The translations under genes were made by a program, and so were the position numbers. Shown here one piece after another: positions 454-49,099 of a DNA stretch of 64,000 bases; position 1 is the first letter of the stretch, and each line of letters opens with the position of its first letter. Origin of the DNA: Eledone cirrhosa (lineage: Eukaryota); the NCBI GenBank assembly GCA_964016885.1, contig OZ024742.1:358360001-358424000 (forward strand). Reading direction: 5' to 3'. The notes below the pieces were generated by a model, which was not told the DNA's origin, ran no database searches, and worked only from the letters and a program-made list of their open reading frames with translations.

Positions 454-496
454 GTCAAAGTTCTTTCGTCACACATTCCGTGACCTCTTCAGTGAC
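454..496 (-). ncRNA. Minimal type-I hammerhead ribozyme motif (family A, left arm)
   Basis: Reverse complement reads gtca-CTGAAGA-g-gtcac(ggaatgt)gtgac-GAAA-gaac-TT-tgac; stem I gtca/tgac. Confidence 0.7.
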
Positions 497-660
497 TAGG
501 GATTCTTTTATTTGTTTTTGTGCCTCTCCTTTGTTCTGTCCTACGCCATCTTGTTTTTGTTCTGTCACACGCCATCTTGTTTTTGTGTGTGTCACACACA
601 AAAACAAGATGGTGTAGGACAGAACAAAGGAGAGGCACAAAAACAAAGAAAAAATCCCCA

Positions 661-703
661 GTCACTGAAGAGGTCACAGAATGTGTGACGAAAGCATTTT
701 GAC
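661..703 (+). ncRNA. Minimal type-I hammerhead ribozyme motif (family A, right arm)
   Basis: gtca-CTGAAGA-g-gtcaca(gaatg)tgtgac-GAAA-gcat-TT-tgac. Confidence 0.7.
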
Positions 704-946
704 AATATATAAACAATCATCTGGTTGTGGAACCAACCAACCAACCAGAAATTTATAAATTCCTAAATTTATAAATTTATTATAATAAATTGAAGAGAAA
801 GCAACTGGTGCGTGTGTTTCTTATTGGCAACAAGACCCTCCCAAAGTATAACAATATCGGTTTCAACACACGTTTTCAGATAAAGAATGTTGCTAAACAA
901 ATTCAGAAACGAAATATATATTTATATATATATACATATATATATA

Positions 947-1846
947 CGAGGTGTGTCAGAAACGTTCCAGGACTAATGTCACAAAAGATTTAGTTCAAAC
1001 CCAAACTTCACACTAAGAATTTTCTCCTTCAAAGTAATCCCCCTGGAGTATGTAACTAATCTTAGCTCTCTGCAGCGATCAAACTTTTTTCTTCATAATT
1101 TTATATACATGTCCTCTGTTTCAGGTCGTCAAGCAATGAACACAGAGAAATGAACAAACTTGAAAACTCCATCCTGCTGGGATTACTGCAGCAAGTGTAT
1201 GGATATGAGAGGATGTCATGCTCACGTGTTTTCAAGTGGTGCAAGAGATTTAAAGAAGGACACGAACACGTGGAAGATGACCCCAGGCCCTCAACAACCA
1301 GGACTGAGGTCAATGTTGAGCGCGTCAGGCACATAGTTCATAGCAATCGTCGGCTGACTGTTCGACTGATGGCAAATGAGCTGGGCATGAATCGGGACAG
1401 TGTCTGGAAGATTCTCACTGAAGATTTGGATATGCGGAAAGTCTGCGCCAAGATGGTGCCAAAACTGCTGAATGATGATCAGAAGGGTCGACGCATGCAA
1501 GTGTGCCAGGACATCCTCGAGCGTCTTGAAACCGAATCAGACTTACTAGGGACAGTCATCACCAGTGATGAGTCATAGATCTTCGAATACGACCCGGGGG
1601 GGACCCATTTTGAAGACGTGGACGAGATCAAAAAGGCCGTGACAACGGAACTGAGGAGGATCCCAGAAGAATCCTTCCAGGAGTGCATGCAAGCGTGGAA
1701 GAAAAGGATGGAAAAGTGCAGGGAGATTACTTTGAAGGAGAAAACTCCAGGGGGATTACTTTGAAGGAGAAAACTCTTAGTGTGAAGTCTGGGTTTGAAA
1801 TAAATCTTTTGTGACATCAGTCCTGGAACTTTTCTGACCCACCTCT
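947..1846 (+). mobile_element. Internally deleted mariner transposon with ~105-bp terminal inverted repeats, in (TA)n
   Basis: 947-1050 is inverted relative to ~1744-1846; ORF 1150-1578 has a mariner HTH region, a KMVPKLL motif (WVPHEL-like) and TSDES; TA-flanked. Confidence 0.9.
1150..1745 (+). pseudogene. Mariner transposase remnant
   Basis: VFKWCKRFKEG...VEDDPRP, VCAKMVPKLL, stop at the DESW position, then a jump from YDP to the C-terminal GTHFEDVDEIK; most of the catalytic domain is deleted. Confidence 0.88.
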
Positions 1847-1848
1847 TA

Positions 1849-1913
<65 letters not shown>

Positions 1914-2359
1914 GAATGCATGTATAGTATATTTGGTAATATACCGTATGTTTAATTAAAAACATTTTGAAGACCTTGCGCTATCATTTTAAAGTAGTGA
2001 CTACGTCACTTACTTCTTTTTTCAGAGCACCAATCCTAATTTTTAATTTTTGCTGGACCGGCAATCGCTCTGTATAATTAGTTCTTGATTATTACTGGAA
2101 TTCTATAAGAATCCAGCGTCTATAATTTCCAGCAGAGGTCGGCGAGAACGTTGCTCTGAGAAACACCAACAGTGTGAAACAGAATCTGTCAGCTTCTCTC
2201 CCTTCCTTTGCTGAAAAAAGAAATAAGTGACATAGTCACTACTTTAAAATGATTGCGCAAGGTCTTCAAAATGTTTTAAATTAAACATACGGTATATTGC
2301 CAAATATACTATACATACATTCATGTATACATCGCTATTTCAGAGCACCAATCCTAATA
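1914..2359 (+). mobile_element. Penelope-like pLTR structure: inverted 3' piece + ~318-bp unit + short re-started copy
   Basis: 1914-2024 is inverted versus ~2213-2324; tttcagagcaccaatcctaat is repeated directly at ~2020 and ~2338; hammerhead motif at 2153. Confidence 0.7.
2153..2193 (+). ncRNA. Type-I hammerhead ribozyme motif, G8A variant (family B)
   Basis: gct-CTGAGAA-acac(caaca)gtgt-GAAA-cag(aat)ctg-TC-agc; all three stems pair, GTC cleavage triplet, core has A in place of G8. Confidence 0.6.
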
Positions 2360-3313
2360 TCTATCTATATATATATATATATATACACTTATACACACTA
2401 GCAGAAAAACCACCCTTCAGGTGGTTTTCTGGTAGCATGTGTAGTGTGTATATTGATATTATACGCAAATACACATGCATATAGATATGATACATCAAAT
2501 AAAATCGTAATTGAGAATATGCACAGAAATTGAAGAGAGACTGTTACACTGTCTTCTGCAATCAGTAAAGTAATCCATGATACATTTTAAAAAGACGATA
2601 TTATATATAAACTGTATTACGGTGAAATATAATGAAAATGAAAAAGGAGAAAATTAGCGACGGAAGTATAAACCTTATATAACGATGCAAATATATGAAC
2701 GTTTATATAAGCGATGTGATATAGCGTCTGTTTTATCATAACCTGAAGTATTGACATTTGAAAATTTTAAAAGAAGTGAATCTTAAAATAAGCAATCATT
2801 ATGATAAAATAATGTACCAGTAAAACACTGGGATAATTGCTGGCCTTGTGCCAAAAAGTAGAAACAATTATATATAAGAATATTTATGTTTAATCAACAG
2901 TTACAAAATTTAGTAGATAAATTATGTAATATTTATTCATTATTTATTCAAAGTAATCCAACTTATTTTACTAGCGGCATAAAAAAATATATTCAGGACA
3001 CATTCCCACACTCTTTCTTCATTATATTATGATTACAAAAATATAATTATAAAAAATTAAGTATGATATAAAAATACCAAAATAGTCTTGAGACAATTGA
3101 ATAAATTAGAATAAATATATTATTTAATAAAAAAATATGTATTTTATATATAGTAGTCAGATATAAAACATAAGAACCTTAAAGGTTTCCTTTGCTTTTA
3201 AGTTCATAAGCTTACAACCATGGCTTAGTCCCTGAACATAATAAAATGCCTGTATGAACTGCCATCCTGTTGATTACTATTTGCTCATTGATGCATTATT
3301 TAATTTTCTACAC

Positions 3314-3428
3314 AGGGTGTCTATAAGAACTGGACAGAAGAAATATTTCAGTTAAATAAAATGTTGCTGGATTTATTTTTATTTGACAATATGTATTTTG
3401 CTTGTGCGTCTAAACTTTAAGGACACTC
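3314..3428. mobile_element. Small Tc1/mariner-like MITE whose right end is split by the RTE insertion
   Basis: Left end cagggtgtc; right end ggacactc continues as actctgta at 6181 after the LINE. Confidence 0.5.
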
Positions 3429-6180
3429 ATCATCATCATCATCATCACCGTTTTACGTCCGTTCTTCCACGCTAGCATGGGTTAGACGGGTTGTCCTGTT
3501 GTGGGCAGTGTCTGGTCGGCTGACCATGCCTTGCTCATACAGGAACTGATCTGGCTTGATTTCTACAGCTGGATGCCCTTCCTAACACCAACCTCATTTA
3601 CAGTGTGGGCTGGGTGCTTTTTCGTGGCGCCTACACGTCCACCTTGCGGTGGGGGGGGGGGGGGGGGGGGGCATATTGTTTATATGCTTCAGCATGTACC
3701 CATGGGAGGTCGGGTACCCTGTATTACTGCGTGACGCCAGAAGTCACGGTCGTGTGTCATTGACTTTGAGAGGTGTAGTTGGGTAAGGTCGGCTTTTATC
3801 ACCTCATCCCAAGTCATCTTGGGTCTCCCCACTCCGCGGTTTCCATCAACTTCTAGTGCTCTGCACCTTTTTATGCAGCTGTCATCCTTCATACGCATCA
3901 CATGTCCATACCAGCGTAACCGCCTCTCCTGCACGCAGCATTTGATTCCTCTTATGCTCAGTCTCTCTCTCAATTCATTTATGCTTTGTCGTTCACGTAT
4001 ATTACTGTTACACATCCATCGGAGCATGCAGGCTTCGTTTCTCTCTAATCTACGTAGGTCTTCCACCTTCAGCGCCCAGGTCTCACTACCATGCAACATC
4101 GCTGTTCGGATACACGCATCATACAGTCTGCCTTTCATTCTGAGGGAGAAGCCTTTTGCAGCTAGCAGTGGTAGTAGTTCCCTAAACTTCTTCCATCCCG
4201 TTCTTACCCTAGTTATTGTACTTTCTGAGCACCCACCTCCGTTGCTAATTCGGTCACCTAGGTAGCAGAAGCTGTCTACTGTTTCTACAGGGCCCTCCCA
4301 GAGATTGGTGGTACTTGTTTCCTGTGGCTGTTTGCTTGCTGTTTCAGCACAGCTGCTGCATGTGAATCCTACATTCTTAATTAAGCTTCCTGAGATCCCG
4401 CTACATCTCTTGTGTACCCATTGTTTGCATTTGGGGCAAAGAATGGAGTTCCTACCTACACCTTTCCTACATACTGAGCAAGGCCATTTCCCTGAGGGGA
4501 TCTGGGTTCTGTTTTCTCGTCTACTTATAAGGACCTTAGTCTTTGTCATGTTGACTTTGAGGCCCTTTCTCTCTAGTCCCTGCTTCCAGGTTTGGAATTT
4601 ATTCTCTAGTTCTACCATAGATTCAGCTATGAGTGCGAGGTCATCAGCATACAGGAGTTCCCATGGGCATCCGGTCTTAAACTCCTCCGTTATTGCCTGC
4701 AGGACTATGATGAACAGGAGAGGGCTAAGAACAGAGCCCTGGTGGACCCCAACCTGTACGCTAAATTCCTCGCTATACTCATTGCCAATCCTAACTTTGC
4801 TGACTGCTCCCCTATACATGGCTTGTACCGCTTTCACAAGCCATTCATCTACTCCTAGTTTTCTAAGAGCCCACCAGATTACTGCACGTGGAACTCTGTC
4901 AAAGGCTTTCTCAAGGTCGACAAATGCCAAGTAGAGTGGCTTACTTTTAGCTAGGTACTTTTCCTGTAATTGCCTCACAAGGAAGAGCGCATCAGTGGTG
5001 CCTTTCCCTGGTACAAACCCAAATTGCATCTCGTCTATATTCACCCGGTCCCTAATCAGCTGTGCTATAACTCTTTCTGTTACTTTCATGACCTGGTCCA
5101 TCAACTTTATACCTCTATAGTTTCCTCTATCTAGTGCATCGCCTTTACCTTTGTAGCAGTTGACAATGATGCTACTGCACCAATCTTTTGGTATGGCCCC
5201 CTCTAGTATTACCTGGTTAACGATACGTGTGGTTATAGTGTGACCTACAGACCCAGATGCCTTCAGCATCTCGGCAGCTATACCCGATGGACCGGTTGCC
5301 TTCCCTATCTTCATATCTCTGATTGCCTTACTTACTACGCTGCCGCTGACTTGTACTGCTGGTCCCTCTATAGGGTCTACGTGGGGTAGGGTCTCTTCTT
5401 CCCATGCATTCTCCTCATTTAGTAATCTATCATAATGACTCTTCCATGCATCTTTCTTCTCAGCACTTGTGAGGGCAAGCTCACCTTTATCATTCCGGAT
5501 ACACTTCTCTCCAATGACATCACAACTATCTCTGACACACTGCCTCGCAATCTTGAATACCTCCTGTTTCTGGTCCTCACGTTGTAAAACATGCTTGAAT
5601 TTTCTATCCTCTGCTTCCCTCCTAGCTAAGTATACTTGTCGCCTAGCTTCCCTCTTGGTCTCTATGTAATGTACCCTGCTCCCCCCGTTCTTCCATTCTT
5701 TCCATGCCTGTCTCTTGGCCTTGACTGCTTCATCTACCTTATTGTTCCACCACCAAGTCACTCTCCTCCTGCTTGAGGTCTTACTCCAGCCACAAACCTC
5801 ATCCGTCGCCTCTAGTAAGTTATTTTTTAGGAACTCCCAGTTCTCTTCTACGTTAAATGTCTCTATCTGTTCTTCTTTACTGTCGTAGGCGTTGAGTAAA
5901 ATATCTTTAAATCTGTTACTGGTTGAGGGGACTTTCAGCTTCCAGATCTTTCTTCTCCAGGTTGGCCTCTGTTTCAGGGCTCGTCTAGTTCTGACCGTGA
6001 GGTCGCTGACAACTAAGCTATGTTGGGATGTACATTCCTCACTAGGGAAGGCTTTTGTGTTTACGACCGTCCATCTGTCACGTCCTCTGATGAGGATAAA
6101 ATCTAACTGACTAGAGTGCTCCCCTGATCTATAGGTGATCAGGTGGTTGTCGGGTTTTTTAAAGTTTGTGTTACATATCG
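3428..6180 (-). mobile_element. 5'-truncated RTE/BovB-like LINE with (GAT)n tail
   Basis: Long RT ORF, end of APE endonuclease upstream, 3' UTR 3448-3688, (cat)n on the + strand at 3428. Confidence 0.95.
3689..5761 (-). CDS. RTE-clade reverse transcriptase (intact RT domain, PHD-like Cys cluster, C-terminal region)
   Basis: [55 protein letters not shown]. Confidence 0.93.
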   Translation of the reverse strand: MTWWWNNKVDEAVKAKRQAWKEWKNGGSRVHYIETKREARRQVYLARREAEDRKFKHVLQREDQKQEVFKIARQCVRDSCDVIGEKCIRNDKGELALTSAEKKDAWKSHYDRLLNEENAWEEETLPHVDPIEGPAVQVSGSVVSKAIRDMKIGKATGPSGIAAEMLKASGSVGHTITTRIVNQVILEGAIPKDWCSSIIVNCYKGKGDALDRGNYRGIKLMDQVMKVTERVIAQLIRDRVNIDEMQFGFVPGKGTTDALFLVRQLQEKYLAKSKPLYLAFVDLEKAFDRVPRAVIWWALRKLGVDEWLVKAVQAMYRGAVSKVRIGNEYSEEFSVQVGVHQGSVLSPLLFIIVLQAITEEFKTGCPWELLYADDLALIAESMVELENKFQTWKQGLERKGLKVNMTKTKVLISRRENRTQIPSGKWPCSVCRKGVGRNSILCPKCKQWVHKRCSGISGSLIKNVGFTCSSCAETASKQPQETSTTNLWEGPVETVDSFCYLGDRISNGGGCSESTITRVRTGWKKFRELLPLLAAKGFSLRMKGRLYDACIRTAMLHGSETWALKVEDLRRLERNEACMLRWMCNSNIRERQSINELRERLSIRGIKCCVQERRLRWYGHVMRMKDDSCIKRCRALEVDGNRGVGRPKMTWDEVIKADLTQLHLSKSMTHDRDFWRHAVIQGTRPPMGTC

Positions 6181-8684
6181 ACTCTGTACATTATTTATTA
6201 AGCCATCAGTGAAGATCAATCAGAAGGATGCCCAGCAATACAAAATAATATTAATAACTTTTTCACATAGTGACCTATAACTTCATTGAATTAACAAGGT
6301 GGCAGAGTAGATAAGGCATTTGATTATCTATTCAGGAATCATCATTTTCAAGTCTGAAGTTTTTTGTTGTTTCAGGACAGAATACATTATTGTGTATTCC
6401 ATTTGGTCACTTATTGGCAGGCAATGGGTATAAGATATTTTTTGAAAAAGTCAGTATGGCTTATCTATTGCTACATATATCTTATAGCTATTGACTTAAT
6501 TCATTATAATTCTGCATGCAATAATTGGCAAAGGAAAAGAACTAATGCCAGTTTGTGTCAGCAAAAAAAGAAAAAAAAAAAGAAAATATTTTAAAACAAT
6601 TCTAAAGTAGAATAAATTTCTTTGTCTTTAAAAGTGGTACATACTTACAATTATAGCAGAATTATTCATTAAATAAAGGAAAGATATTAACCCTTTCCTA
6701 CTTACTTGCTTGGCGTTCACCTGGGGTGGGTTGAGCTGGCTCTATTAAAGGAATTCATAGTGTAAGTTCATTTCAAAGGAGTTTCTTCAGAGCATTGGTT
6801 TCATAAGTAGATATGCACTTTAGGATAGTACAAACCAAGCATTGCTATAGCACCATAATCTTGCTTTCACACCCAACCCAATTTGGTGGAGTCTGTGCCA
6901 CTACGGGGATGCATGGGAGGGAGTTTGGCCAGCAGAGGTGATAAACACAACTTATTTGAGCCATTTTATAGGCCAGCAGGAGCTTACCCCACTGTCTAGT
7001 TCAACCATACTGACCCTCAGCACCAAACCTTTCATGAACATATTTCTAATGAAATCCCATCTATTTCAATTAATTGATGACAAATTTCGAGTGACTTACT
7101 AAAATTAATTAATTAGTTCATAATTAAGATAGTAACTTAATGTAAGGTTCTTATATAAAATTATTTTGGAAGATATTAATTTAAACAATAAACCTTCAAA
7201 AGGGGGTAACTTTATTTCAAATAACCAGAGCTGGTTTTGGCTATGTTGTTAACAAAAGGGTTGATAGAGAGAGGGGAGGGGGGTGTATGGAATTAAGAAA
7301 TTCCCAGCCTTCCAACACAATTTGTTCAAAGAGGGTTTCTATCCAAAATATCAGAACACATTGCTTATCATGTGATATAATGAATAAACATTCAGAATAT
7401 TTGTGTTGAAACTTCTCAGAAACATTTAACTGCTGATATAAATAATATTTTTATTCCTTTTAAAAATATTTTGTTTACTTATTTCAATTCTAGATGGGTG
7501 GTTTTGTTTTTAACTTTGCTTATTTTACAAGTTTTAATGTTTGCATTGAATTGTTGGAGCAAATATTTTTACCCCTTACAGGACACAATTCCTAATACCC
7601 TCCATTCAAGCATGAAGCAGATGCACAACCTATTTTAGTTTTGTCTAGTCTGAAGCAAACTGAATAATGTGCTTAGCCAAAGACAAGGAGTATGATTATT
7701 GTAGACAGCTGGGCTTGAAGTCATGGATTTGTGGGCATTCATTCACCATTTTAAGCACAACAGCAACTGTAATATTTAAAAATAAATAAATAGATATAAA
7801 TGAAAGTAAATATGAAACTCTTTCAAATGTTGCTTGCTACCTCCAGTTGATTTTGAATGTATGCCAATGGTTTCATTAATACCTTACAGTTGTTGTTGGA
7901 TGTTGTTACTGCTTTTGTTTTTCCTTTCAGTTAGATATGTGATACACAATTCTTCTCTATTACATTGAAGTTATTCATTGAAAAACCAATTCATATGAAC
8001 ATTACCAATATTGATTTTAACTATGTGAACAAAGATTTAAGGAATGTACATAAACTTTAAGCAAAAATAATAACATTATTTATTTTGATAAAAACAAAAG
8101 CACAATAAAACACTAAAGAACATTTTAAATTAAAGAAAATTCTTGTCATGCATTCCTAATTTGTGTTCCTATCTCCAGCAGAATGTTTGCCCGTGGCTTT
8201 AGGTGCTTGATTCTAGTGATTATTCATTGATAAAATAGAACCAATTATTGATAAAGTGGAACTGGAAGCAAGAACAATAAATAGCTTTATAGATTTTTCA
8301 GGTTAAAACTGAAATACTATTCTATAAGCAAAAATAATTCCAACTCCCAATGGGTGACTATTTTTTTTCTGTAACTAATTACTGATATTTGTTAAAGTAA
8401 AAAAGAAATTAATGTTGTATGCTGAAACATATTTCTATTTTCAATAAATGTAAAAGAAAAAGTTATGTTGGAAATGTGTACACCAATTAAGGAATGTTGT
8501 TTCAATTTTTGTCAAAAAAAATTATCTATCCTTGTGAAAGAAATTGGGATCATGTGAACTCTTGTAAACAACTTATCACTGTGTTTCAAGGTGTAAAAGT
8601 TCTCTAAAAAATGGAAGTTTTCTGTAAGTGGATTTATTATATATATATGTATATATATATATATATATATATACATGTACATAT

Positions 8685-8986
8685 AGACAATATGCCCCAC
8701 CCACTCCAACTGCAAAGTGGTCGTGGAGGTGCCACAGCAAAAAAGTACCCAGCCCACACTGTAAAGTGGACATGTAGGCACCATGGAAAAAAAGCACCCA
8801 GCACTCATTGTAAATGAGGTTGGTGTTAGGAAGAGCATCCAGCTGTAGAAATCAAGCCAGAATCAGTTCCTGTATGAGCAAAACAAGGTCAGCAACTGGA
8901 CACTGCCCACAACAGGACAACTCGTCTAACCCATGCTAGCGTGGAAGAACGGATTTAAAACGGTGCTGATGATGATGATGATGATG
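8685..8986 (+). mobile_element. RTE 3'-UTR-derived short copy with (GAT)n tail
   Basis: Reverse complement of the 24772-25070 3' UTR. Confidence 0.8.
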
Positions 8987-9436
8987 AATATGTGTGTGTG
9001 TGTATGTATATAAATCAGGATGGATTCAGTTTAAACTGGTTAGACCATTATTCAACAGAGTACTCGATACTTAGGGTAGTAGAGTATGGTCATATTATAA
9101 CAGCAACAGCTGAGCTCTTGCCATTTCAACAACTATTTCCAGACTGGAACTAGCTGTTGAAATGAGCATCCAGTCAAATCAATTTGAAATGATTTCTTCA
9201 GATGGGATCTACTGGAAGGAATGTTAAGGACTCTGCCCCCACCTTCCCAGGAATAAGTTGGTGAAGAAGAAGTAATCTGACTGGATTCTCATGCAAGACC
9301 AGCGTAGCTCATGGATGTTATTCAAACATCTTGCTTGGGGTCTACTGCTAGGTCTCCTGTTGGTTTGGTTTAAAATCTGTCTCGTGACTCAGAGGCTACT
9401 CTTCTCCAGATATTCCTACTCCACAAACAAGCATGC

Positions 9437-9449
<13 letters not shown>

Positions 9450-9472
<23 letters not shown>

Positions 9473-10664: not shown

Positions 10665-10665
10665 A

Positions 10666-16235: not shown

Positions 16236-16288
<53 letters not shown>

Positions 16289-16502
16289 CGGAGGAAATGA
16301 GGTAAGGAACAAGGTGGACCATAACGCACCAAAGTACTCAATACTTAGGGTAGTAGAGTGGGTAATAGGAACGAGTAGGACCCCGACGGCTGAGGTCAAG
16401 CCGTTTCGACGGCTAATTCTGTCCAGAATATAAAAGACGTAAAATAAGAAAATTTTTTAAAAAATATTTTTTAAAAAATTAACTTACTTACTTAAATTTT
16501 CA

Positions 16503-16582
16503 CTCCAACTAATTAGTTTCTGCAATGGGATAAAGACAGTTACGTAATGAACTGTTGAGAATTTCATTGCGTCATCAGGGAG
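16503..16582 (-). ncRNA. Type-I hammerhead ribozyme motif (family C, inverted copy)
   Basis: Reverse complement of 17063-17142. Confidence 0.85.
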
Positions 16583-17062
16583 GTCATTCTCAGCCAAGTC
16601 TCCATTATTTTACGTCTTTTATATTATCAGCCAAGTCTCCACTTATTTTACGTCTTTTATATTATTGTTCTGCATCCTCCTGCATTAAACCACCTAGGTA
16701 CTATGACATAACCTGTGTATTTGCTGGCATTAGCGTACATCCGTGCGCTTATGTTAGTAGATATATTAAATTATCTATATTTATCTCCAAATCACTGATT
16801 TGTCGAGCAAACCTGCCAAAACCACTTCTAAATTTTTTTGGGGGGTGTTAGTAGGCGTCTGTCATCTCACCATCCCATTCCTACTGACTAGCCTCTGTGT
16901 CACGTGATTGATTCTTTAGAATCGGCCATATGATCAGTGGCAGTGAGAATTTTCAGTACCTGGAATCCAGTCCTCGATAGCTGTTCCATTTACCGAATTA
17001 TTATTATTTTTATATGAGTCCCCAGTGTCCGCGCATTGCCTGGAGACTTGGCTGAGAATGAC

Positions 17063-17142
17063 CTCCCTGATGACGCAATGAAATTCTCAACAGTTCATTA
17101 CGTAACTGTCTTTATCCCATTGCAGAAACTAATTAGTTGGAG
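17063..17142 (+). ncRNA. Type-I hammerhead ribozyme motif (family C)
   Basis: ctcc-CTGATGA-c-gcaatg(37 nt with acagtt/aactgt hairpin)cattgc-a-GAAA-ctaattag-TT-ggag; palindromic stem III ACTAATTAGT; GTT triplet. Confidence 0.85.
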
Positions 17143-17617
17143 TGAAAATTTAAGTAAGTAAGTTAATTTTTTTTTTTTATTTTTTTTTTAAATTTTCTTA
17201 TTTTACGTCTTTTATATTATTGTTCTGCATCCTCCTGCATTGAACCACCTAGGTACTATGACATAACCTGCGTATTTGCTGGCATTAGCGTACATCCGTG
17301 CGCTTATGTTAGTAGATATATTAAATTATCTATATTTATCTCCAAATCACTGATTTGTCGAGCAAACCTGCCAAAACCACTTCTAAAATTTGTTTGGGGG
17401 TGTTAGTAGGCGTCTGTCATCTCACCATCCCATTCCTACTGACTAGCCTCTGTGTCACGTGATTGATTCTTTAGAATCGGCCATATGATCAGTGGCAGTG
17501 AGAATTTTCAGTACCTGGAATCGAGTCCTCGATAGCTGTTCCATTTACCGAATTATTATTATTTTTATATGAGTCCCCAGTGTCCGCGCATTGCCTGGAG
17601 ACTTGGCTGAGAATGAC

Positions 17618-17697
17618 CTCCCTGATGACGCAATGAAATTCTCAACAGTTCATTACGTAACTGTCTTTATCCCATTGCAGAAACTAATTAGTTGGAG
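17618..17697 (+). ncRNA. Type-I hammerhead ribozyme motif (family C, second tandem copy)
   Basis: Same sequence as 17063-17142, 555 bp downstream. Confidence 0.85.
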
Positions 17698-18034
17698 TGA
17701 AAATTTAAGTAAGTTAATTTTTTTTTTTTAATTTTTTAAAAAATGTTCTTATTTTACGTCTTTTATATTATTGTTCTAATCCTCCTGCATTGAACCACCT
17801 AGGTACTATGACATAACCTGTGTATTTGCTGGCATTAGCGTACATCCGTGCGCTTATGTTAGTAGATATATTAAATTATCTATCTATATATATATATATC
17901 CTCATCATCATCACCGTTTTACGTCCGTTCTTCCATGCTAGCGTGGGTTAGGCGGGTTGTCCTGTTGTGGGCAGTGTCCAGTCAGCTGACCTTGTCTTGC
18001 TCATACAGGAAATGATTATGTATATATATTTATG

Positions 18035-18093
<59 letters not shown>

Positions 18094-18125
18094 AGATCAA
18101 AAGATGGTTAAAGGAGTTCCATGTA

Positions 18126-18192
18126 TTTTATTATGCGCATTTCAAAAACAAACATCATCATGCAATAATATTCGTGTTTTCATCAGATAAAA
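18126..18192 (-). ncRNA. Type-I hammerhead ribozyme motif (family D, left arm)
   Basis: Reverse complement: ttttat-CTGATGA-long stem II hairpin-GAAA-tgcgca-TA-ataaaa; palindromic stem III ATGCGCAT. Confidence 0.8.
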
Positions 18193-18332
18193 CAGGAGGA
18201 CATGATATGAAGGCTACAAAATACTTGTGGATAGTGCAGTTTTAAATCAACATATGTTGACATATCAAGATATGTTGATTTAAAACTGCACTATCCACAA
18301 GTGTTTTTTAGCCTTCATATCATGTCCTCCTG

Positions 18333-18399
18333 TTTTATCTGATGAAAACACAAATATTATTGCATGATGATGTTTGTTTTTGAAATGCACATAATAAAA
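18333..18399 (+). ncRNA. Type-I hammerhead ribozyme motif (family D, right arm)
   Basis: ttttat-CTGATGA-aaacacaaatattattgcatgatgatgtttgttttt-GAAA-tgcaca-TA-ataaaa; stem III palindrome broken by one transition. Confidence 0.75.
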
Positions 18400-18557
18400 T
18401 ACATGGAACTCCTTTAAACATCTTTTGATCTTATATATTATGTATACTCCAGTCCTACAAATTGTAGAGTGTTTCTTATCCGATATCTGCATTGCTTTAT
18501 TGTTTATTGTACTACAATAAAACTCACCCCCTATATATATAAATATATATATGTATA

Positions 18558-19530: not shown

Positions 19531-19594
19531 TGATATATATATAGAGAAAGAGAGAGAGATTACATGAAACAAAGTTCTGTTTAAATCATTTATC

Positions 19595-19641
19595 TGCTTA
19601 CAATTGTTTCTTCCAAACCGAGGTTTGGAGTCTTCGGAGCA
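19595..19641 (-). ncRNA. Minimal type-I hammerhead ribozyme motif, U4C variant (family E, left arm)
   Basis: Reverse complement: tgct-CCGAAGA-c-tccaaac(ctcg)gtttgga-a-GAAA-caattg-TA-agca; palindromic stem III ACAATTGT. Confidence 0.72.
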
Positions 19642-20970
19642 ATTATTCAGTGATTTTTAACATACTTGACCTCCTTTTCAACACAAGAGACATATAGAAA
19701 CATATGTATATATTGACCCACAGTGGGTTGACATCCATTACAATAATATAGCATGGTAATTTACATACAAAGATTACAGTCATATTAAAGGACAAAATTA
19801 AAATTAAAATAAAACATTGGCAGTCTACTAAGATAAAGCAAAAGGAAAGTTTGGAGTAGCCAGTGTATGCAACAGTCACACGTGTGGCATGCACGTGTGT
19901 CCTATTTATACAAGATTATAGTGCGGCAGATTGTTACAAGTAAAACAAGCAGTCAAAGCAGGCAATCAAGAGCATCATGGGGGTGAACTGGTTAAGCATT
20001 ATTTACACACACCTGTACGATATAGAAGCCCGTGTGTGGAGAAACACCAAAAATATCAAAAATATTACAAATGAGAAGCAAAACAGCACCACTGTCCTCG
20101 TACACACCACCACTCTCACAATCCAGGAAACGCAATTTATAGACTACATGCCCATCTCAATCCACGATGATTCAACCACTGGATGCCTGGTGAACCATGC
20201 TAGAACATCACAGCTTGTCGTTCTTTAATTCGATTCATAGATCAGGTTGTTTTTGTTGTGAGAGATGATATCGTATTATATTCCGGAAGTGTGTGTGTGT
20301 GATTAAGGGGAGTTAATGCGTAAGGGGAGGTAACTAGCTGATTTCTATAGTTAAATTTATTATCCTAAAGTACATTAATGGTGTCTCAAATGAGTTCTCA
20401 TCATATAAGTTTATAAACAATTTCTAAATTTAAGTATCTTATCTATAAATTACAGTGTAGTCTATCGAGAAGTACTAAAGGTGTTCATATTAGGATGAAT
20501 ACCTTTTATCATAGAGTGCCCCCACCGAACATTCCACATGAAGAGTCAGATCTCCAAATCAATGATCTTTGTAAGTGTAGTCCACCCGCAGGACCTGGCA
20601 GGGTCTTATTAGAATCACTTCTATATATGACTCCTGGTAAGTTCTGGGTCATTGCATGACTGATTGCATGGCAAAGTTAAATATCACTAGGGTAGTCCAG
20701 AGATCAATTCTCACTTACAAAGACACTGATCTGACCATCAAGTCATACATGTATTTATAACTCATACATCACCTGTACATAATTCATTGCACTCAGCATA
20801 TAGATTATATAGCTCTTTTATGTTAATAAATTAATTACTTAATCTTCCATTTATCCAATGATGGCACTACATACACAGAACAATGTTAGCACAACCAATT
20901 CCGTGCTTAAAGTTTACATTGGTGTAATGTAGTCTAAGCAATTGAAGGCCCATATACCAAAAGTAGAATA

Positions 20971-22375
20971 CACCGCGATGATGCACTTCTACTTATAGAT
21001 TATAAAAAATTCAATATAGAAAGAACTAGAAAACTATTGCACAAGACATTCAAAATCTATAACCTTAGTATTACCATGGACAAAAACACTAAAAACGTTA
21101 ACTTCCTGGACGCCACCCTCTACCTAGACTCAAAGATATATGCACCTTTCCACAAACCTAATGAAAAACTCATTTACGTAGATACCAAGTCTAACCACCC
21201 TAGATCTATATTAAACTCTATCTCTAAGGGAGTATCTAATAGAATCTCTAATCTATCCTATCACGTAAACATATTTAGCAAAAACTCGCAATATTATAAC
21301 CAGGCATTAGCTAGATCAGGCCATAATATAGAGATCGAGTTCCTACCTACAAAAGCACATAGCTACAACATTATTTCGCACAACATGTCCATGAGGAAAT
21401 TTAGTAATGGGAATAGCAACCACACACACACTAATACGGAAGATGCAAACAAAAATAAACCACACCACAGAAATTACCATAGTACCATAAAAGGAAACAA
21501 CTCACCAGACATAAAAAACAAAAATAGAAGAAGAAATAATACATTTTTAAACCCTCCTTTCAATCTAAACGTCTCTACCAACCTACCTAGGGCTTTCTTC
21601 ACACTACTAGATAAAAACTTCCCATCCGGCCATAAGTACCATAGCCTTTTAAACAAAAAACACTATTAAAATCTCCTACTCTACTACGCCTAACATAGCA
21701 TACCACATAGTTAGTAGCAATAAAAGAAAAATTAATTCTTACTTCCAGCAAACTAAATCACAACAGACGATAAACCTTCAAAATAACATTATAGCAACTA
21801 ACCCTAATATCAATAGAAATAATAGTAATAAGACTAGTGTAAACAATAACACTGGGAATGTCAACCCACATAACCATAACCCTATAGCTACCATCCAGAC
21901 TTCTACACAACATATTAACCTGCAGACTAACACCCAGAATAATTGTAACTGTAGATCAAATAGAACCTGCCCTTTAGATAAAAAATGCTTAACCAAGATA
22001 TCATATACTCATGCACAGTCACAACTAGCAACTCTTCTGAAACCTATATAGGCTCTACTTCAAACTGCTTCCAAACCAGATACAATTCGCACCACCACTC
22101 TTTCAAAAAACACAGTCTAGCCAACTCCACTTCTCTATCTAGCTACATACACTATCTAAAAACTAAAAATAAACCATATACACTTAAATGGTAAGTGATA
22201 GGTAACGCGTCATCGTACAAACTACCTAATACATTTTGTAACCTCTGTCTACTAGAGACCCATACTATCATCTTCTCAAACCATAACCTCCTTAATAAAA
22301 AATCAGAAGTGTTCGCGTCTTGCCAACACCGCTTGCGACACTCCTTCCAAAACTTTAAACCCAATATATAACAGT
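20971..22375 (+). pseudogene. PLE RT C-terminus/thumb, Asn-rich linker and GIY-YIG endonuclease
   Basis: HRDDAL at 20971, VNFLDATL, KPNEKLIYV...SNHP, NPPFN, CNCRSNRTCPLDKKC, IIY...YIG...RY.SH, CNLCLLE, SE..ASCQH; frameshifts and stops. Confidence 0.9.
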
Positions 22376-23846
22376 GTCAGACTTGAACCCGTCACCACCT
22401 CTAGCAGCAATCATCAGGGGCACACCTTACACCTTATCTCCACACCCATTAATCCTATTTAACGCAAATAGTGACATCCTCCTAGTACCTTTTTCCTTGG
22501 AGATATCCCCATGTACTTCTACTTTTGGTATATGGGCCTTCAATTGCTTAGACTACATTACACCAATGTAAACTTTAAGCACGGAATTGGTTGTGCTAAC
22601 ATTGTCCTGTGTATGTATGTAGTGCCATCATTGGATAAATGGAAGATTAAGTAATTAATTTATTAACATAAAAGAGCTATATAATCTATATGCTGAGTGC
22701 AATGAATTATGTACAGATGATGTATGAGTTATAAATACATGTATGACTTGATGGTCAGATCAGTGTCTTTGTAAGTGAGAATTGATCTCTGGACTACCCT
22801 AGTGATATTTAACTTTGCCATGCAATCAGTCATGCAATGACCCAGAACTTACCAGGAGTCATATATAGAAGTGATTCTAATAAGACCCTGCCAGGTCCTG
22901 CGGGTGGACTACACTTACAAAGATCATTGATTTGGAGATCTGACTCTTCATGTGGAATGTTCGGTGGGGGCACTCTATGATAAAAGGTATTCATCCTAAT
23001 ATGAACACCTTTAGTACTTCTCGATAGACTACACTGTAATTTATAGATAAGATACTTAAATTTAGAAATTGTTTATAACCTTATATGATGGGAACTCATT
23101 TGAGACACCATTAATGTACTTTAGGATAATAAATTTAACTATAGAAATCAGCTAGTTACCTCCCCTTACGCATTAACACCCCTTAATCACACACACACTT
23201 CCGGAATATAATACGATGTCATCTCTCACAACAAAAACAACCTGATCTATGAATCGAATTAAAGAACGACAAGCTGTGATGTTCTAGCATGGTTCACCAG
23301 GCACCCAATGTTGAATCATCGTGGATTGTGAGATGGGCATGTAGTCTATAAATTGCGTTTCCTGGATTGTGAGAGTGGTGGTGTGTACGAGGACAGTGGT
23401 GCTGTTTTGCTTCTCATTTGTAATATTTTTGATATTTTTGGTGTTTCTCCACACACGGGCTTCTATATCGTACAGGTGTGTGTAAATAATGCTTAACCAG
23501 TTCACCCCCATGCTGCTCTTAATTGCCTGCTTTGACTGCTTGTTTTAATTGTAACAATCTGCCGCACTATAATCTTGTATAAATAGGACACACGTGCATG
23601 CCACACGTGTGACTGTTGCATACACTGGCTACTCCAAACTTTCCTTTTGCTTTATCTTAGTAGACTGCCAATGTTTTATTTTAATTTTAATTTTGTCCTT
23701 TAATATGACTGTAATCTTTGTATGTAAATTACCATGCTATATTATTATAATGGATGTCAACCCACTGTGGGTCAATATATACATATGTTTCTATATGTCT
23801 CTTGTGTTGAAAAGGAGGTCAAGTATGTTAAAAATCACTGAATAAT

Positions 23847-23893
23847 TGCTCCGAAGACTCCAAACCTCGGTTTGGAAGAAACAATTGTAAACA
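23847..23893 (+). ncRNA. Minimal type-I hammerhead ribozyme motif (family E, right arm; stem I mutated)
   Basis: Same as the left arm but the 3' stem I strand reads aaca instead of agca. Confidence 0.62.
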
Positions 23894-24093
23894 GATAAAT
23901 GATTTAAACAGAACTTTGTTTCATGTAATCTCTATATAACTGCTCTGTAAAACAACTGATGTTGTTACATTGAGCTATTTATCTTACTGGTAATAAGATA
24001 GTAATAAATTACTGTCTTTCACTATTTAGGGTATAATATATATATAACTATAAAAGGTTTTAGTATATACATAACCATAAATAGTATCCTTAA

Positions 24094-40760: not shown

Positions 40761-40797
40761 CCACTTCTAAATATCGCAAATATGAAATCTAGAGTTC

Positions 40798-43514: not shown

Positions 43515-43601
<87 letters not shown>

Positions 43602-43602
<1 letters not shown>

Positions 43603-46600
43603 TAGCAGAGGTACCCGGCGTTGCCTGGTATAACTCTCAATGGAGTAGTCGTTCAAATGAACCGAGAGACTTCCGTTAAACACGACTATAGAAGTAACAA
43701 TTTATAGGTGTTGGCCCTAAAGAGGGCCTTTGAATGTTCACTTCGAAATATCTCTGCGGTGGTGCTGCCAGCAAAGACGAATCCGATGGTAACAGTTTAA
43801 AGTTGGCGGCCCTGAAGAGTGCCTTGGATCGTTCACTCTTAAAAGTCTCAGCGGCGGTGCTGCCAGCAAAGAGGAATCCAGCGGCGATATAATTTATAGT
43901 TGGTGGCCCTGCAGAGGAGCTTTTAACGTTCACTTTGAAATATCTCAGCGGCGGTGCTGCCAGCAAAGATGAATCCGATGGTAACAATTTAAACTTGGTG
44001 GCCTTGAAGAGGGCCTTGGATCGTTCACTCTTAAAAGTCCCAGCGGCAGGGAAAAGTTGATTAATTAGGTTAAAACTACGGAACATCGATAGCAAAGTGT
44101 AATAGCAACATATAAATGCGGAAAACGGAGACATTGAACATTTATAACGTATATCAAAAGCAACCTCAGAGGCGTACGTCGTATTGTCAAAGGGACAAAA
44201 ATAGCACAGATACAGCAAATGTAAGCACTTATACAACAACAAAAAAAACACCGATTACTTGTTGGCGGATGGGGTGCCTACAAGGCTTCCTTATAGACTA
44301 TATTTTGGGTTTTCTCGCGAGTTGCAAAAGCAAATAGGTTATGTCGGCTCCCCACTCGAGAGCAGCCAACATATAGTTGACCATGGGAGAAGCACAGTTC
44401 TTCTAAATTAAGCCCTACGACCGTCAGCGTCTGACCTTGTGATTTGTTAATCGACATGGCGAAACTGAGCTGGAGAGGGAATTGCAGCCTTCTGAATGTG
44501 AAAGGAATGTCTTTACCGGATGGAACGAGATGTCTCCTTGGTATGAAGACAGTATCCCCCTTACCACATCCTGTAAGTATTGTTGCCTCAATAACATGAA
44601 GCATCGCCTTTTGGACGACCAGATGCGTGCCGTTGGTTCCAAATTCCTGAGGAGCATGACAGGGGTACCTTTCTTAAGTCGCAGTAAGTGTGGTGGTAAT
44701 CCGGGAGGGTCTAGGGAGCTAAGAAATTCTGTGGGGTAATTAACAACTTCGTCCGGATCAGCCATAGAGTCAAGGGACTTGTAGACGTGCAGGTTTCCCG
44801 ACAATCACATCATGAGCTGTTCATGATGTTTCCAACTATATGGTTTTTCGAAGTCAATATTGCGCGTTCACACAACCACTCTTGATTTGTGTAGTTCTCC
44901 TCAAGATTAGGAAAAACAGACGTCCGTAACTCAGCAATTGACTTAACACATCTGCAAATCCCTTTGAGGTCCGCTGCTCCATCTCCGTCGAGTGGGACTT
45001 TGCCATCTCCCAACGACAAAATAGCAGCAGCAAAACCCGTTGATGTCTTATCACCTTGCAGTTGTACTATCATGTTTGTTTTAAGCGTCAGCTTTCTTAC
45101 ATAACGCCAAAGTGGGGAGGCCTTAAGGCATGCACCAACCTCATCAGCCCGCGTACCTTTTGGGATTACAGGCAGTCTGTCGGAAGTCCCCAGATAACGG
45201 GAAAGTGACACCTCCCATTGGTTCTTGACAGTTCCTGTGGGCCATTGTGCATTCGTCCCAAACAATTAGTAGGCAGCGCTTTAACACCAGTGCTTTTCCG
45301 GAAGACTTGCTGATGTTGGACGTGGGTGTGTCAGATGATGCCACGTTGAGAGGAAGACTGGAGGCAGAATGAACTGTCCTGCCACCAGGCAGCAAAGTTG
45401 CTGCAATGCCGGAAGAAGCCACGGCCAATGCGATATTTCCGTGTTGCCTCACTGCAGCGAGTAAAAGTTTGAATACAAATGTTTTGCCCGTGCCTCCAGG
45501 TGCGTCCAGGAAGAATATACTCCCTCCCGATTACGGATGGAATCAACGACAATGTTGTAGGCTTGTTTTTGATCCATTAGAAGTTTTGGTTCATTTTCTT
45601 CAACATACCAATTGAGTTCGACATCATATGACGTTTCACGTATAATGTCGTTGGGAATGTCAGATGACGCATCTCCAAGTATTTGCGGAAGCCCATATTT
45701 CTCCAAGACATCTCCGCCCATTGAAGCCACTGTCTTCAATATCGATCAGAGCTCTGTTATATATAGCGTCTGAAAAGCCGACATCTAAGTTTGGAGATTG
45801 CAATTGAGCGAGACGCCTATATTAGTCTGCGAAATCATCTTTAAACTTTTGCCATAAAGAGTAAGGATCGCTCAAGTCACAGACGTGCAAGAGGATTGCA
45901 AAAGGTGCCCTTAGACTACAGGATGATTGTGAGATGGCAGCTTCTGTCAAGGTTGCATCCCATTGTGCGTCATCTTCTAAGTAACCACGCCTCAAGCAGG
46001 CTTCCCTGTACGTTCCGCAGGCGTATCCATCGACGGTTCTCAGATGAGTGAAGCTAGTCGGCTCTCTTACCTCATGAAGCAGAAGTCGCAGGTAGAAGCA
46101 TTCGTGTTGGGTAGGGTGGACCGTATAAACTCGCTCATGGCAATTGTCGAATTTGATGCCTGGATGTCCCACCACCTCTTGCCCTACCTTCCTTCGTAGC
46201 CATTTTGTCCGGTTCCATGTATAGTAAGACGGTATTTCAGAATACAGCAGAGTTCGAGCGAAGTCGTCGTGTTGACAAAGTTGGAAAAAAGCGGTGTGTG
46301 TAGTTTCCTTTGGTGAGATCGATAGCAGAGCAGCTGTTGCATCGTTGAAATACACCCGTTAACCGTTTTCAGGGTGAACGGCAAGTTGTTTAATGACGGG
46401 ATGTCGTTGGTGCAGTGGGAAGCCTAAAATGCGCCAAAAGGCTTCATTGCTGCTAATGTATCGGCCTGCTTGGTAGTCAGATACCTTGTCTCTACAGTTT
46501 TCATGACGAAGACCAAAGATAGCAGCATCCGATCCCTTGTTTACGTACTTACAAACGTATTTAATTGATTTTACTGAGTTGCAAAATTCGACGTTTATAT

Positions 46601-48560
46601 TGGCGTTGAACGCTTTCAAAAGGAGGGGGCATAACGGCACTATCCAGCTGTTGTCGATTTCGCGTTGCCAACTTTTGCTGTGAACCCACCGTCTTCTGGT
46701 CTCCTGCGCCTATACAACGGATATCCGCCACCACCAGTCTGTGTTTCCTGTAAAAACGGCCTGGTATATCGTTTTGTACACTTTCCGTCGTGTATGCACG
46801 GGGACTTCATATTGAGTCCATGTCCGCAAGGACCATAGACCATGTTTGATGTGACTATAGAGAAGAGGTCCTTGTCAATCGACGGATCAGGTAGTTCGGC
46901 AGAAATGAATTTGTCGATGTAGTTTGAACTGATTTTTGTAACCAACCAAATCAAGATATGGACATGCGGCAGCCCTCGTTTCTGCCATTCAACCGTGTAC
47001 ATGTCGCACATGACAGGCCCCAAAACCTGTCCTTTCTTTAATAAATCCATTAATTTGGATAATTTCAGACGAAATGGCCAGGGGTCGCCATTTCGCACTT
47101 AATTGAGGTGCAATTAAACGGGGGAGACAACAGGGTGCAAAAACTAATAAATCCTTCGCACAGTTTAGGCACGAGTGTGAAATAGCACAATCCACATACA
47201 GTAGGCTTTAAAATTTACACCTGGGTTAAATCGCGCTTTCTTGGTTAGGAGTGTGAAATGACGCCAAAGTTCAAGAAAAAAAATGTAACTCCCCATTCCG
47301 CACTTTATTGTGGTGCAATTACACGTGGGAGACAACCGGGTGCAAAATTCAATTCAATCATCCTAAAGTTAACTAAACAAACTAAAGTTAAGTCAGGGGG
47401 ATCTAAAAATTCGATACTCCATTTGTAGGACATGAGTAACCGATGCGTCAACTTTCGTTTAAATTGACTTTTATTTCCAGAAGTTGAAATGCTTTGCTGC
47501 AACAATAATATGAACTTTAAAGTGGTCCAAAGGGGCTTACTGCTCCCCCTTGCAAATTTCAAGTGATAACGAATGTGTGGTGCTTTATCTTATGGCAGGC
47601 AATAACCATTTCATTTAGGTTTTGTAAGAATCAAGTATAAACTCCCGAGGTTATGGTGCTTTTTTATTGTGGCAGTTTGAACTTTTATAGGTTAAGGAAT
47701 TGGGCTCATTGTCCCCGAGAGGTCCTCTTGCTGAATTGAAATGAAAGTAAATGTGTCTCACTGTATCTTCATCTGTAGTACATGAATAACAACTAAGTCG
47801 AAATTCATTTTATTGGACTACCAATTATCGAAGCTATGACGCTTTGCTGCATTACAATAGCCAAATTCAATAAATGACTCGCCGGGGCTTATTGCCCCCT
47901 GGGGGTACGCTTCCTTGTTCCGGGTATAGGCAGTGTCTTCAACATCATCTTTAGGCAATGGGTAACCAATGTGTCCGGTAAAGTTAAAATCGAACGTAAA
48001 CTTCAAAAGTTATCAGGTACTATTACAGTGTTAATGTGAACTTCAATAGATATGTCGAAGGGGATTACACCCCTTCCCCTCGGGTGGTCCCCTTGATAAG
48101 TTCAAGTAAAAGTTCATGTGTTCACCTTCCTTTATAACCAATATGTCTCGCTTCGTGAAAACCAAACACCAACTCAAGCAGTTATGACGTTTTGTTGCAT
48201 TGATGATATCAACTTCAACATTCATCAAGTAGGTTTACTGCCCCCTAAGGGGTCCCCTAACTGAATTTCTGCGCAAGTGCATGCCTGCAAATTTATTTGT
48301 AGGCCATAAGCAAACAAAAGATTAATTTTGGTGAAGATGGGATGCAAATTGCAGGAAGTATGGGGCCTTTATGCAGTAGTACTGCTGATTCCAAGTGAGA
48401 GGCTTAAGGAGGTTATCTGATCCTGGGGAGCCCCACAAATGAAAACTAAAATAGCCTAAAACGCGTAATAGGACTTCTGAAAACCATGTATGAAATTTGG
48501 TGCAAATCGGTTGTAAAAGGTAGAAATGCGTGCGGTTACACAGGCAAATAGACAGGCATC

Positions 48561-48575
<15 letters not shown>
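43602..48575 (-). mobile_element. Helitron, decayed and lacking the RepHel N-terminus
   Basis: Minus-strand 3' end ccaggcaacgccggg hairpin then ctgCTAG|t; 5' end tatatataaaacagatgcctgtct merges into (TA)n; Rep and PIF1 remnants inside. Confidence 0.9.
44278..47080 (-). pseudogene. Helitron RepHel (HUH Rep + PIF1-like helicase), multiple frameshifts
   Basis: [83 protein letters not shown]. Confidence 0.95.
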
Positions 48576-48615
<40 letters not shown>

Positions 48616-48717
48616 TACACGGGTGTGTATGATTGCGTATAGAAGATTATATTAATAAAAGAAATTCCAACTTTGTCTGATTTACTCGTTTTATTTACAA
48701 TCCTTTAAAATTATAAT

Positions 48718-48909
48718 TGTTTCTACTTTTGGCACAAGACCAGCAATTACCCAGTACACTACTGGTACTTTATTTTATCGACCCCGTAAGGATGAAAGGC
48801 AAAGTTAACCTCGACGGGATTTGAACTCAAACCGTAAAGGGACGTAACTATGCTAGAAAGCATGGCGTCCAACCCTCTACTGATACTGCCAATTCACCGC
48901 CCTCCTTAA
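48718..48909 (-). mobile_element. tRNA-derived SINE with a 19-bp TSD
   Basis: Box A/B on the minus strand (ttggcagtatcagtag, gagttcaaatccc); TSD aatcctttaaaattataat at 48699 and 48910. Related copies near 32870, 36710, 56720, 59105 and 60710. Confidence 0.85.
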
Positions 48910-49062
48910 AATCCTTTAAAATTATAATGGTATTAGAATGAAATAGTATGGTAGAATATTAAATGTTAAGTGTTAATTGAACAAGTACTTTCATGCTTTG
49001 ACAGTCAAGTTTGCAATTTTCAACAGTTGAAAATTGCAAACTTGACTGTCACCACAGAATAT

Positions 49063-49099
49063 GAACTTGAAGATTGCGAAAGCATGAAAGTACTTGCTC
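49063..49099 (+). ncRNA. Minimal type-I hammerhead ribozyme motif, C3U variant (family F)
   Basis: gaac-TTGAAGA-t-tgc(gaaa)gca-t-GAAA-gtac-TT-gctc; the inverted arm gives gttc, restoring stem I; palindrome AAGTACTT. Confidence 0.62.

Follow-up and report, generated by a model that had tools for sequence, protein, structure and literature searches.

What kind of element leaves six long inverted repeats, each belonging to a family with a hammerhead ribozyme motif, within a single 64-kb stretch of an octopod genome? The stretch (hereafter the window) comprises 64,000 nucleotides of Eledone cirrhosa (assembly GCA_964016885.1, contig OZ024742.1, positions 358,360,001 to 358,424,000), and the fold-backs that start in it at 300, 1914, 16427, 18085, 19555 and 48650 are referred to as families F1 to F6. 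A first-pass annotation had taken them for a dense set of non-autonomous ribozyme retroelements mobilised by the reverse transcriptase (RT) and GIY-YIG endonuclease of Penelope-like elements (PLEs). We consider it probable that all six are PLE insertions into (TA)n tracts, four of them derived from coding elements and two from units without an open reading frame (ORF), and that the two arms of an inverted insertion were primed separately, at two sites, on the RNA of one source.

Families with predicted minimal type I hammerheads

The inverted repeats lie where they had been annotated, and all six fall into repeated families with a hammerhead fold. Comparison with shuffled sequence, which the annotation had proposed, supports the motifs. 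A type I hammerhead scanner found six, from three families (F1, F3 and F5), whereas 100 local dinucleotide shuffles gave 0.06 on average; a looser scanner, which adds F2 and F4, found eight from five families, and 29 of 30 shuffles gave none and one gave a single motif. The F6 motif was missed by the scanners because the window copy carries both C3U and a stem I mismatch. Rfam gave no hammerhead among 129 matches to the window (E<=5), and on the fold-backs it returned only sub-threshold matches of the microRNA (miRNA) type.

First-look searches yielded at least 1035, 3138, 1176, 136, 2383 and 745 candidates for F1 to F6, respectively, which are lower bounds and not copy numbers, and 40 were scored per family. 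The family-majority core is canonical in five of the six families and carries U4C in F5, and the majority sequence folds in each case; with a CUGANGA/GAAA/UH core, three stems and an open stem I, the predicted RNA is a minimal type I hammerhead. Of 230 arms, 205 agree with their family majority at each of the 11 core positions. Variable cells make up 0.95% of the core (24/2522) versus 2.8% elsewhere (1287/45702), a figure that includes subfamily variation. The annotated core variants are of unequal standing: U4C is present in 33 of 33 F5 arms, whereas C3U (5/43 F6 arms) and G8A (3/36 F2 arms) are minority changes. C3U and G8A occur paired in other families, including sister families of F2 with compensatory stems, among which base pairs of stems II and III are swapped.

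Stem III, previously described as mostly palindromic, is a perfect palindrome in F3 to F6, an odd palindrome in F2 and no palindrome in F1, with predicted duplex energies of -4.8 to -10.6 kcal/mol for F2-F6 and +1.4 kcal/mol for F1. The claim that every inverted repeat carries the motif holds at the family level; in the window, the left arms of F2 and F6 are without it, and the right arms of F4 and F5 are damaged in stem III and stem I, respectively. The families are indeed unrelated outside the core, since the best cross-family BLAST match among seven end regions (E=0.15) leaves them mutually unalignable, and the insert junctions confirm the placement in or next to (TA)n. The count of six missed a seventh family, F7, whole hammerhead motifs of which were found at four distinct places.

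Four families lead into coding sequence and two repeat as short units

Upstream extension carries copies of F1, F4 and F5 into RT and endonuclease frames of their own, and such frames were also found upstream of F6, by a tail-anchored search, and of F7, by tblastn. Judged by these sequences, F1, F4, F5 and F6 are 5'-truncated 3' ends of protein-coding PLEs (RT plus GIY-YIG). The proposed kinship to PLE proteins, as opposed to miniature inverted-repeat transposable elements (MITEs) of DNA transposons, is thereby borne out; the label non-autonomous applies to F2 and F3 and not to these four. A full copy runs in the order truncated upstream copy, pseudo-long terminal repeat (pLTR), tail, ORF, 3' region, hammerhead and end. 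The tail equals what comes next after the pLTR when copies lie in tandem, and read-through from pLTR via tail into ORF is seen in F4 and F1. Twenty-four homologs were found at 29-42% identity, one of them, from Argonauta hians, at 37%.

F4, F5 and F7 appear to be of the Hydra type: they have the CxCX5C linker that marks this clade, an endonuclease without CCHH (by inspection), a (TA)n target and a hammerhead. The F4 frames (806-821 residues) hold RW, DKT and CxCX5C, and those of F4 and F5 hold YRDD and Y-x-G-x-T. DKT occurs with RWT in F4 and with RWR in a relative of F5 that is 83% identical, and the F5 and F7 copies stop short of these motifs; on the F5 fragment in the window, GIY-YIG scored E=0.0011, below the cut-off. 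Compared with the published clade (PMC8557442), F4, F5 and F7 share CxCX5C, (TA)n and hammerheads, and F4 also RW and DKT. Hydra elements are described with RWK and as generally under 3 kb, whereas F4 has RWT and a unit of ~3.7 kb (two copies, L289 and L290), the class being set here by motifs. That paper describes the families as few in number, whereas here a single query, the F4 endonuclease, gave 61,077 first-look candidates. Among fetched F4 regions, chosen for long frames or opposite-strand pairs, 10 of 17 hold open frames of 811-821 residues, several of them 820-821. The F4 family is young, given these open frames and 150 endonuclease matches at 98-100% identity. A further open Hydra-type frame, of 832 residues, lies at L309:997-3492 in DNA 83% identical to the F5 body.

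F1 and F6 carry a CX4CxxC linker and a C..C..H..H endonuclease pattern (by inspection), with a short spacer in F1 and a longer one in F6. These motifs suggest the Neptune/Nematis type, F6 being Neptune-like and F1 CCHH-type. The F6 frame (588 residues) matches RVT_1 at E=1.9e-6 and GIY-YIG at E=2.6e-6, and broken copies of F1 show RT motifs and GIY-YIG at E=1.1e-4. The 5' ends of many F1 copies (among them L022, L025, L034, L043 and L048) cluster ~257 nt from the 3' end beside a AAGATGGCG motif, which is YY1-like; transcripts could begin at this point, or the cluster could be an artefact, since the query began there.

In F2 and F3, the 3' end is followed by the family's own head, which gives units of 318 nt and ~555 nt whose longest ATG frames encode 18 and 29 residues (GC 37%). 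F2 copies are preceded upstream by another monomer or by a junction, and not by an ORF. F3 runs up to ~5 units and F2 is mostly present as 1-2. Only F2 and F3 present as ORF-less, retrozyme-like, non-autonomous tandem units, and they were likely moved in trans; PLE-coding matches near their loci read as separate neighbouring insertions. Retrozymes have been published as PLE derivatives, and the non-LTR retrozymes have been proposed to use PLE proteins (PMC7229834; Li et al. 2026, bioRxiv 10.64898/2026.07.22.740005). F2 and F3 resemble them as tandems of short (few-hundred-bp), low-GC, ORF-less units with one type I hammerhead each. In contrast to the canonical retrozyme hammerhead, with its 6-bp stem I and loop 1-loop 2 contacts, theirs is the minimal PLE type with a stem I of 3-4 bp. 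They also differ in having a tail, an inverted arm and a (TA)n target, and in comprising mostly 1-3 units. The word 'inverted' occurs 0 times in the text of the 2020 retrozyme paper (PMC7229834). Because the ORF-less F2 and F3 bear the full PLE insertion signature, mobilisation by PLE proteins is supported more directly than by co-occurrence.

Most inverted insertions carry a tail on exactly one arm

Each family has two sharp 3' ends: one abuts the microsatellite and the other carries a further fixed stretch, the tail, of about 33-112 nt. We counted tails at 170 loci, excluding 3 without a central match, 12 duplicates or arrays, 3 without an anchor and 1 broken by (TA)n. No inverted partner lay within range at 69 of 155 loci. 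Among the inverted insertions, exactly one arm was tailed in 73 of 82, with none tailed in 6 and both in 3 (P=7e-14 versus independent arms). Similarly, the partner arm was tailless in 17 of 19 cases in a tail-selected F6 set, in which ~5 of 30 loci repeat earlier places, and all 11 long F4 regions in which both outer ends could be scored, from 15 looked at, had a single tail. Where the arms were unequal and scorable (32 insertions), the tail was on the shorter arm in 21, 11 of them F2, and on the longer arm in 11; 39 insertions were scored as symmetric, some wrongly.

The arms of the long F4 inversions are closely alike. In 9 of 9, the partner arm was the nearest or tied nearest among 50 others, with 0-4 differences per 761-1050 nt; the arms of one insertion share a haplotype, and the nine pairs together represent several haplotype groups. 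In the window, the F5 arms are 98.5% alike, against 95.5-96.9% to seven other copies. Editing of the template from adenosine to inosine was considered for the arm differences and rejected (A>G at 68/429 versus T>C at 62/424 sites, P=0.66).

The arms abut head-to-head within a few bases, and at many junctions 1-6 bases are shared or a short insertion is present. Palindromic centres recur in F4 and F6, with stereotyped palindromes of ~385 bp in many F6 copies and 338 bp in several F4 copies. Arm lengths and junctions otherwise differ from copy to copy, which argues that the fold-back is a product of insertion and not the mobile unit.

Two primings on RNA from one source as the probable origin of the fold-backs

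In the formation that we propose, the endonuclease would open the (TA)n target, and each of the two cut ends would serve as primer for the reverse transcription of RNA from the same source element. One DNA end would start at a near site and acquire no tail; the other would start at a far site, 33-112 nt away, and acquire it. Both complementary DNAs (cDNAs) would end prematurely, and their inner ends would be joined, often through short overlaps or palindromes. The template would be a tandem read-through or a circular RNA, hence the partial tandems, and the hammerheads would cut mainly as dimers via the palindromic stem III. Two primings fit best because both arms come from one source and the shorter arm often has sequence that the longer one lacks; a simple fold-back copy is disfavoured, since a copy cannot hold sequence absent from its template. 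The Poseidon element of Anolis offers a biochemical parallel: its protein, a predicted dimer, cuts and extends both strands from two internal start sites that bound the tail (Frangieh 2024, PMC11167929), and the tail lies where pLTR and ORF meet, as in F1 and F4. The hammerhead was dispensable in vitro for the lizard element (PMC11167929). In a look for expression in E. cirrhosa, three runs of unknown kind compared with all contigs yielded no information on starts, ends or strand.

Several observations weigh against this reading. The one-tail rule is broken in 9 of the 82 insertions. Family variants in short arms were present in both arms in 58 cases and in one arm in 113 (expected in both, 21); with CpG sites left aside, the counts were 33 and 37. 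In F1, F3 and F5, the within-pair distance was not below the distance between loci. Discordance between short arms may be explained by top-hit selection and later mutation. The arms, in turn, could be alike through gene conversion that followed insertion, or as copies of two RNAs transcribed from one locus. The F6 core is conserved no better than its flanks (2.1% versus 2.0%). Pfam was silent on the Hydra-type frames at E<=0.01, so that the Hydra-type call rests on motifs, and no autonomous partner of F2 or F3 was found among 30 tail-selected F2 loci and 25 F3 loci. Additionally, the start sites of Poseidon showed no difference between the strands in vitro (Frangieh 2024, PMC11167929), whereas one start site per end is implied here.

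Among the alternatives, self-priming deserves the most attention, although we regard it as unlikely. In this scheme, put forward by Arkhipova 2013 (PMC3846280) and Craig 2021 (PMC8557442), an antisense RNA or the first cDNA folds at a palindrome in a snap-back and is copied, and the endonuclease trims one tail. It accounts for arms of the same haplotype and for the repeated palindromic centres in F4 and F6. For the 21 of 32 asymmetric insertions whose shorter arm bears the tail, it would require, in addition, that either arm can be trimmed, and the bounds of the tail coincide with the two RT start sites determined in vitro (PMC11167929). The counts of single tails and of same-source arms separate two published ideas, self-priming and two internal start sites. 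A further possibility, which we rate as distinctly improbable and reject as a general account, is that six dedicated non-autonomous fold-back families exist whose palindrome is itself the mobile unit, moved by PLE proteins. This is true in part for F2 and F3, which have no ORF, and the ~385-bp F6 and 338-bp F4 palindromes could point to palindromic masters that add secondary copies. It sits poorly with the coding frames upstream of F1, F4, F5 and F6, with the wide variation in arm lengths and junctions, with the many loci that have no inverted partner in range, and with a central base of the F6 palindrome that is not fixed relative to the tail (9 versus 3, by eye).

The arms might instead be independent insertions, or derive from RNAs of different loci, and have been homogenised later by gene conversion. 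Discordant variants between short arms and the accumulation of families in shared (TA)n tracts speak for this explanation, but head-to-head abutment within a few bases and the one-tail pattern would be unexpected, and all nine long pairs match along 760-1050 nt; we give it very little credence. Finally, we find it scarcely credible that the fold-backs are DNA-transposon MITEs or chance AT-rich motifs. Their inverted ends and TA flanks are similar to those of MITEs, but the motif is all but absent from shuffled sequence, retroelement frames lie upstream, the inner truncation varies, and tails, tandems and compensatory stem changes are present. In place of a fixed-length unit with equal terminal inverted repeats and kinship to a transposase, the fold-backs have unequal ends.

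Hammerhead insertions are dense throughout the genome

The window had been annotated as dense in such elements. Motifs are many, but this density is typical of the genome: five passing insertions compare with 3.4 expected (P=0.25), and we reject the window as a hotspot. The expectation derives from a hand-picked, not formally random sample of forty 10-kb pieces, taken at round coordinates on 20 large contigs; 18 of the 40 pieces held 43 motifs in all, and five shuffled sets held none. We grouped these motifs into 21 insertions per 400 kb, one array contributing 15 motifs. Scaling to 3.0 Gb (1796 contigs) gives about 157,000 insertions (Poisson 97,000-240,000), roughly 10^5. Across 1.12 Mb of fetched DNA, 388 motifs fell into 37 clusters, 29 of them with a palindromic stem III; the scanner favours palindromes, and this DNA was mostly fetched through the six families. 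For comparison, 126,247 motifs have been reported for the axolotl and more than 6000 for a coral (PMC7229834), and 2,000-9,000 minimal motifs per genome elsewhere (PMC4209133), all with other descriptors.

F7 is very common, with nine matches in 5 of the 40 sampled pieces; most copies (e.g. L059, L082, L117, L129) fold back inside hammerhead stem II and retain only the 3' half of the motif. Tandem hammerhead arrays occur in sampled pieces (L223, L199), with a ~421-nt unit (15 motifs per 10 kb) and a 311-nt unit 68% like F2. A higher-order F3 array (L183-L185, G000:C28:45828000-45858000) holds 25 F3 hammerheads in 30 kb; its blocks of 2-5 monomers share an identical truncation and tail and recur every 2-3 kb. 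This array is a local amplification after insertion.

Features of the window

The features of F1 to F7 are listed in Table 1. The F6 window copy is older than the short interspersed element (SINE) that sits inside its left arm; this SINE has a ~19-bp target duplication.

Table 1. Positions of fold-back, hammerhead and coding features in the window
Feature	Position	Strand	Description
F1 inverted-repeat span	300-857
F1 head-to-head insertion	300..913	.	left arm (-) from 300, right arm (+) to 857; bounded by (TA)n on either side
F1 tail	858-913		56 nt; start of ORF
F1 hammerhead, left arm	454..496	-	canonical core, 4-bp stem I, weak non-palindromic stem III
F1 hammerhead, right arm	661..703	+	stem III altered in window copy
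F2 inverted-repeat span	1904-2332
F2 insertion	1914..2358	.	inverted arm (-) of 110 nt and an almost complete 318-nt monomer (+) without ORF, to 2325; tail ~33 nt, head of F2 monomer
F2 hammerhead	2153..2193	+	GUC site; G8A in window copy, canonical in family majority
F7	16287..16428	-	3' end and tail of Hydra-type PLE (by motif), truncated within hammerhead stem II
F3 inverted-repeat span	16427-17769
F3 insertion	16427..17881	.	178-nt inverted arm (-), short duplicated junction pieces, two tandem monomers; tail ~112 nt, head of F3 monomer
F3 tandem ORF-less monomers	16664-17218, 17219-17769	+	~555 nt each
F3 hammerhead	16503..16582	-	long stem II, 10-nt palindromic stem III
F3 hammerhead, further copies of motif	17063-17142, 17618-17697	+
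F4 inverted-repeat span	18079-18446
F4 head-to-head insertion	18085..18533	.	arms ~176 nt; tail ~87 nt, right arm, from 18441
F4 hammerhead	18124..18194	-	8-bp AU-rich stem I, palindromic stem III
F4 hammerhead, right arm	~18331-18401		stem III broken
F5 inverted-repeat span	19555-23933
F5 insertion	19555..24035	.	1.42-kb inverted arm (-) 19555-20972, body (+) 20972-23933
F5 tail	from 23934		~102 nt
F5 ORF remnant	20938..22370	+	5'-truncated, frameshifted RT thumb, CxCX5C linker, GIY-YIG-like domain (Hydra type by motif)
F5 hammerhead	19594..19642	-	U4C, family-wide
F5 hammerhead, right arm	23846-23894		stem I mismatch
F6 inverted-repeat span	~48650-49217		left arm split by SINE
F6 head-to-head insertion	48612..49217	.	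tail on left arm (48612-48649), SINE 48713-48903 within left arm
F6 hammerhead	49063..49099	+	3-bp stem II, GAAA loop; C3U and stem I mismatch in window copy

Other repeats surround these insertions. The segment 914-1879, which lies in (TA)n, is bounded by terminal inverted repeats of 136 nt, contains a frame that matches HTH_32 (E=4e-6), and looks like a deleted Tc1/mariner-type DNA transposon. Three related pieces of long interspersed elements (LINEs), 68-77% alike, lie on the - strand at 3689-6190, 12833-15624 and 18531-19585, with RVT_1 followed by a PHD finger; one of the three has an apurinic/apyrimidinic endonuclease, and F5 adjoins the third. A broken Helitron at 43676-47098 (- strand) matches Helitron_like_N and PIF1. 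The SINE-like repeat within F6 has ~8 window copies (48713-48903, 2803, 32879, 36705, 49556, 56718, 59104 and 60715). Tandem arrays at 27331-28310 (~116 nt), 54334-54813 (~123 nt) and 62626-64000 (~60 nt) gave no motif with the hammerhead scanners.

Relation to known elements and implications

The class of element is known, and the fold-backs are mostly explained by known PLE biology; what is new here are the families, the density estimate, and the counts of tails and arms. The inverted truncated copy, the one-sided tail and the (TA)n bias of PLEs have been published (PMC8557442). So have minimal hammerheads whose stem III is palindromic, and pairs of them on opposite strands at a spacing of 100-700 bp (PMC4209133). 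The insertions resemble those of canonical endonuclease-positive PLEs (PMC8557442, PMC3846280) in their heavy 5' truncation, partial pLTR tandem, inverted 5'-truncated copy at the 5' side, tail often confined to one end, pLTR hammerhead and palindromes at inverted junctions; the tails measure 33-112 nt here and 30-40 nt there, and the one-tail pattern and arm identity, given verbally in those papers, are counted here. The hammerheads likewise resemble those of metazoan PLEs (Cervera and de la Pena 2014, PMC4209133) in the short stem I, the extra base after A9, a palindromic stem III suited to dimers, U3-A8 variants, several consensus families per genome and opposite-strand pairs from truncated PLEs; the ~10^5 insertions estimated here are more than the 2,000-9,000 per genome given there, but the two figures come from different scanners and are not like for like.

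For octopods, the supplement of PMC8557442 lists one Hydra family on (TA)n (Hydra-1_Obim), and PMC13282606 describes 31 recently active Penelope-like families in Octopus vulgaris in a main text without the word 'ribozyme'. A literature search with most subscription journals outside its coverage returned octopod hammerheads only in PMC8557442 and no report of PLE twin priming. In the fold-backs of E. cirrhosa, both primings would start near the 3' end and yield an inverted duplication. L1 twin priming is comparable in that a single RNA serves both target ends as template and a 5' inversion results, but there the second primer begins far upstream and the halves have no overlap.

Fold-backs of this kind can be mis-filed as MITEs, SINEs or miRNA hairpins. 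The origin of the tandem and inverted structures of PLEs has been named as open (PMC8557442). We hypothesize that priming is coordinated, such that a protein dimer assigns to each target end one of two start sites on a single RNA, giving one tail per inversion in three PLE types and two non-autonomous units, in a genome that would rank with the most ribozyme-dense on record, given its ~10^5 hammerhead insertions, its dozens of families and the open frames of its young Hydra family. In our estimation, the case for this proposal as a whole is evenly balanced. If it is true, the genome of E. cirrhosa would be a test bed for the origin of PLE inverted repeats.

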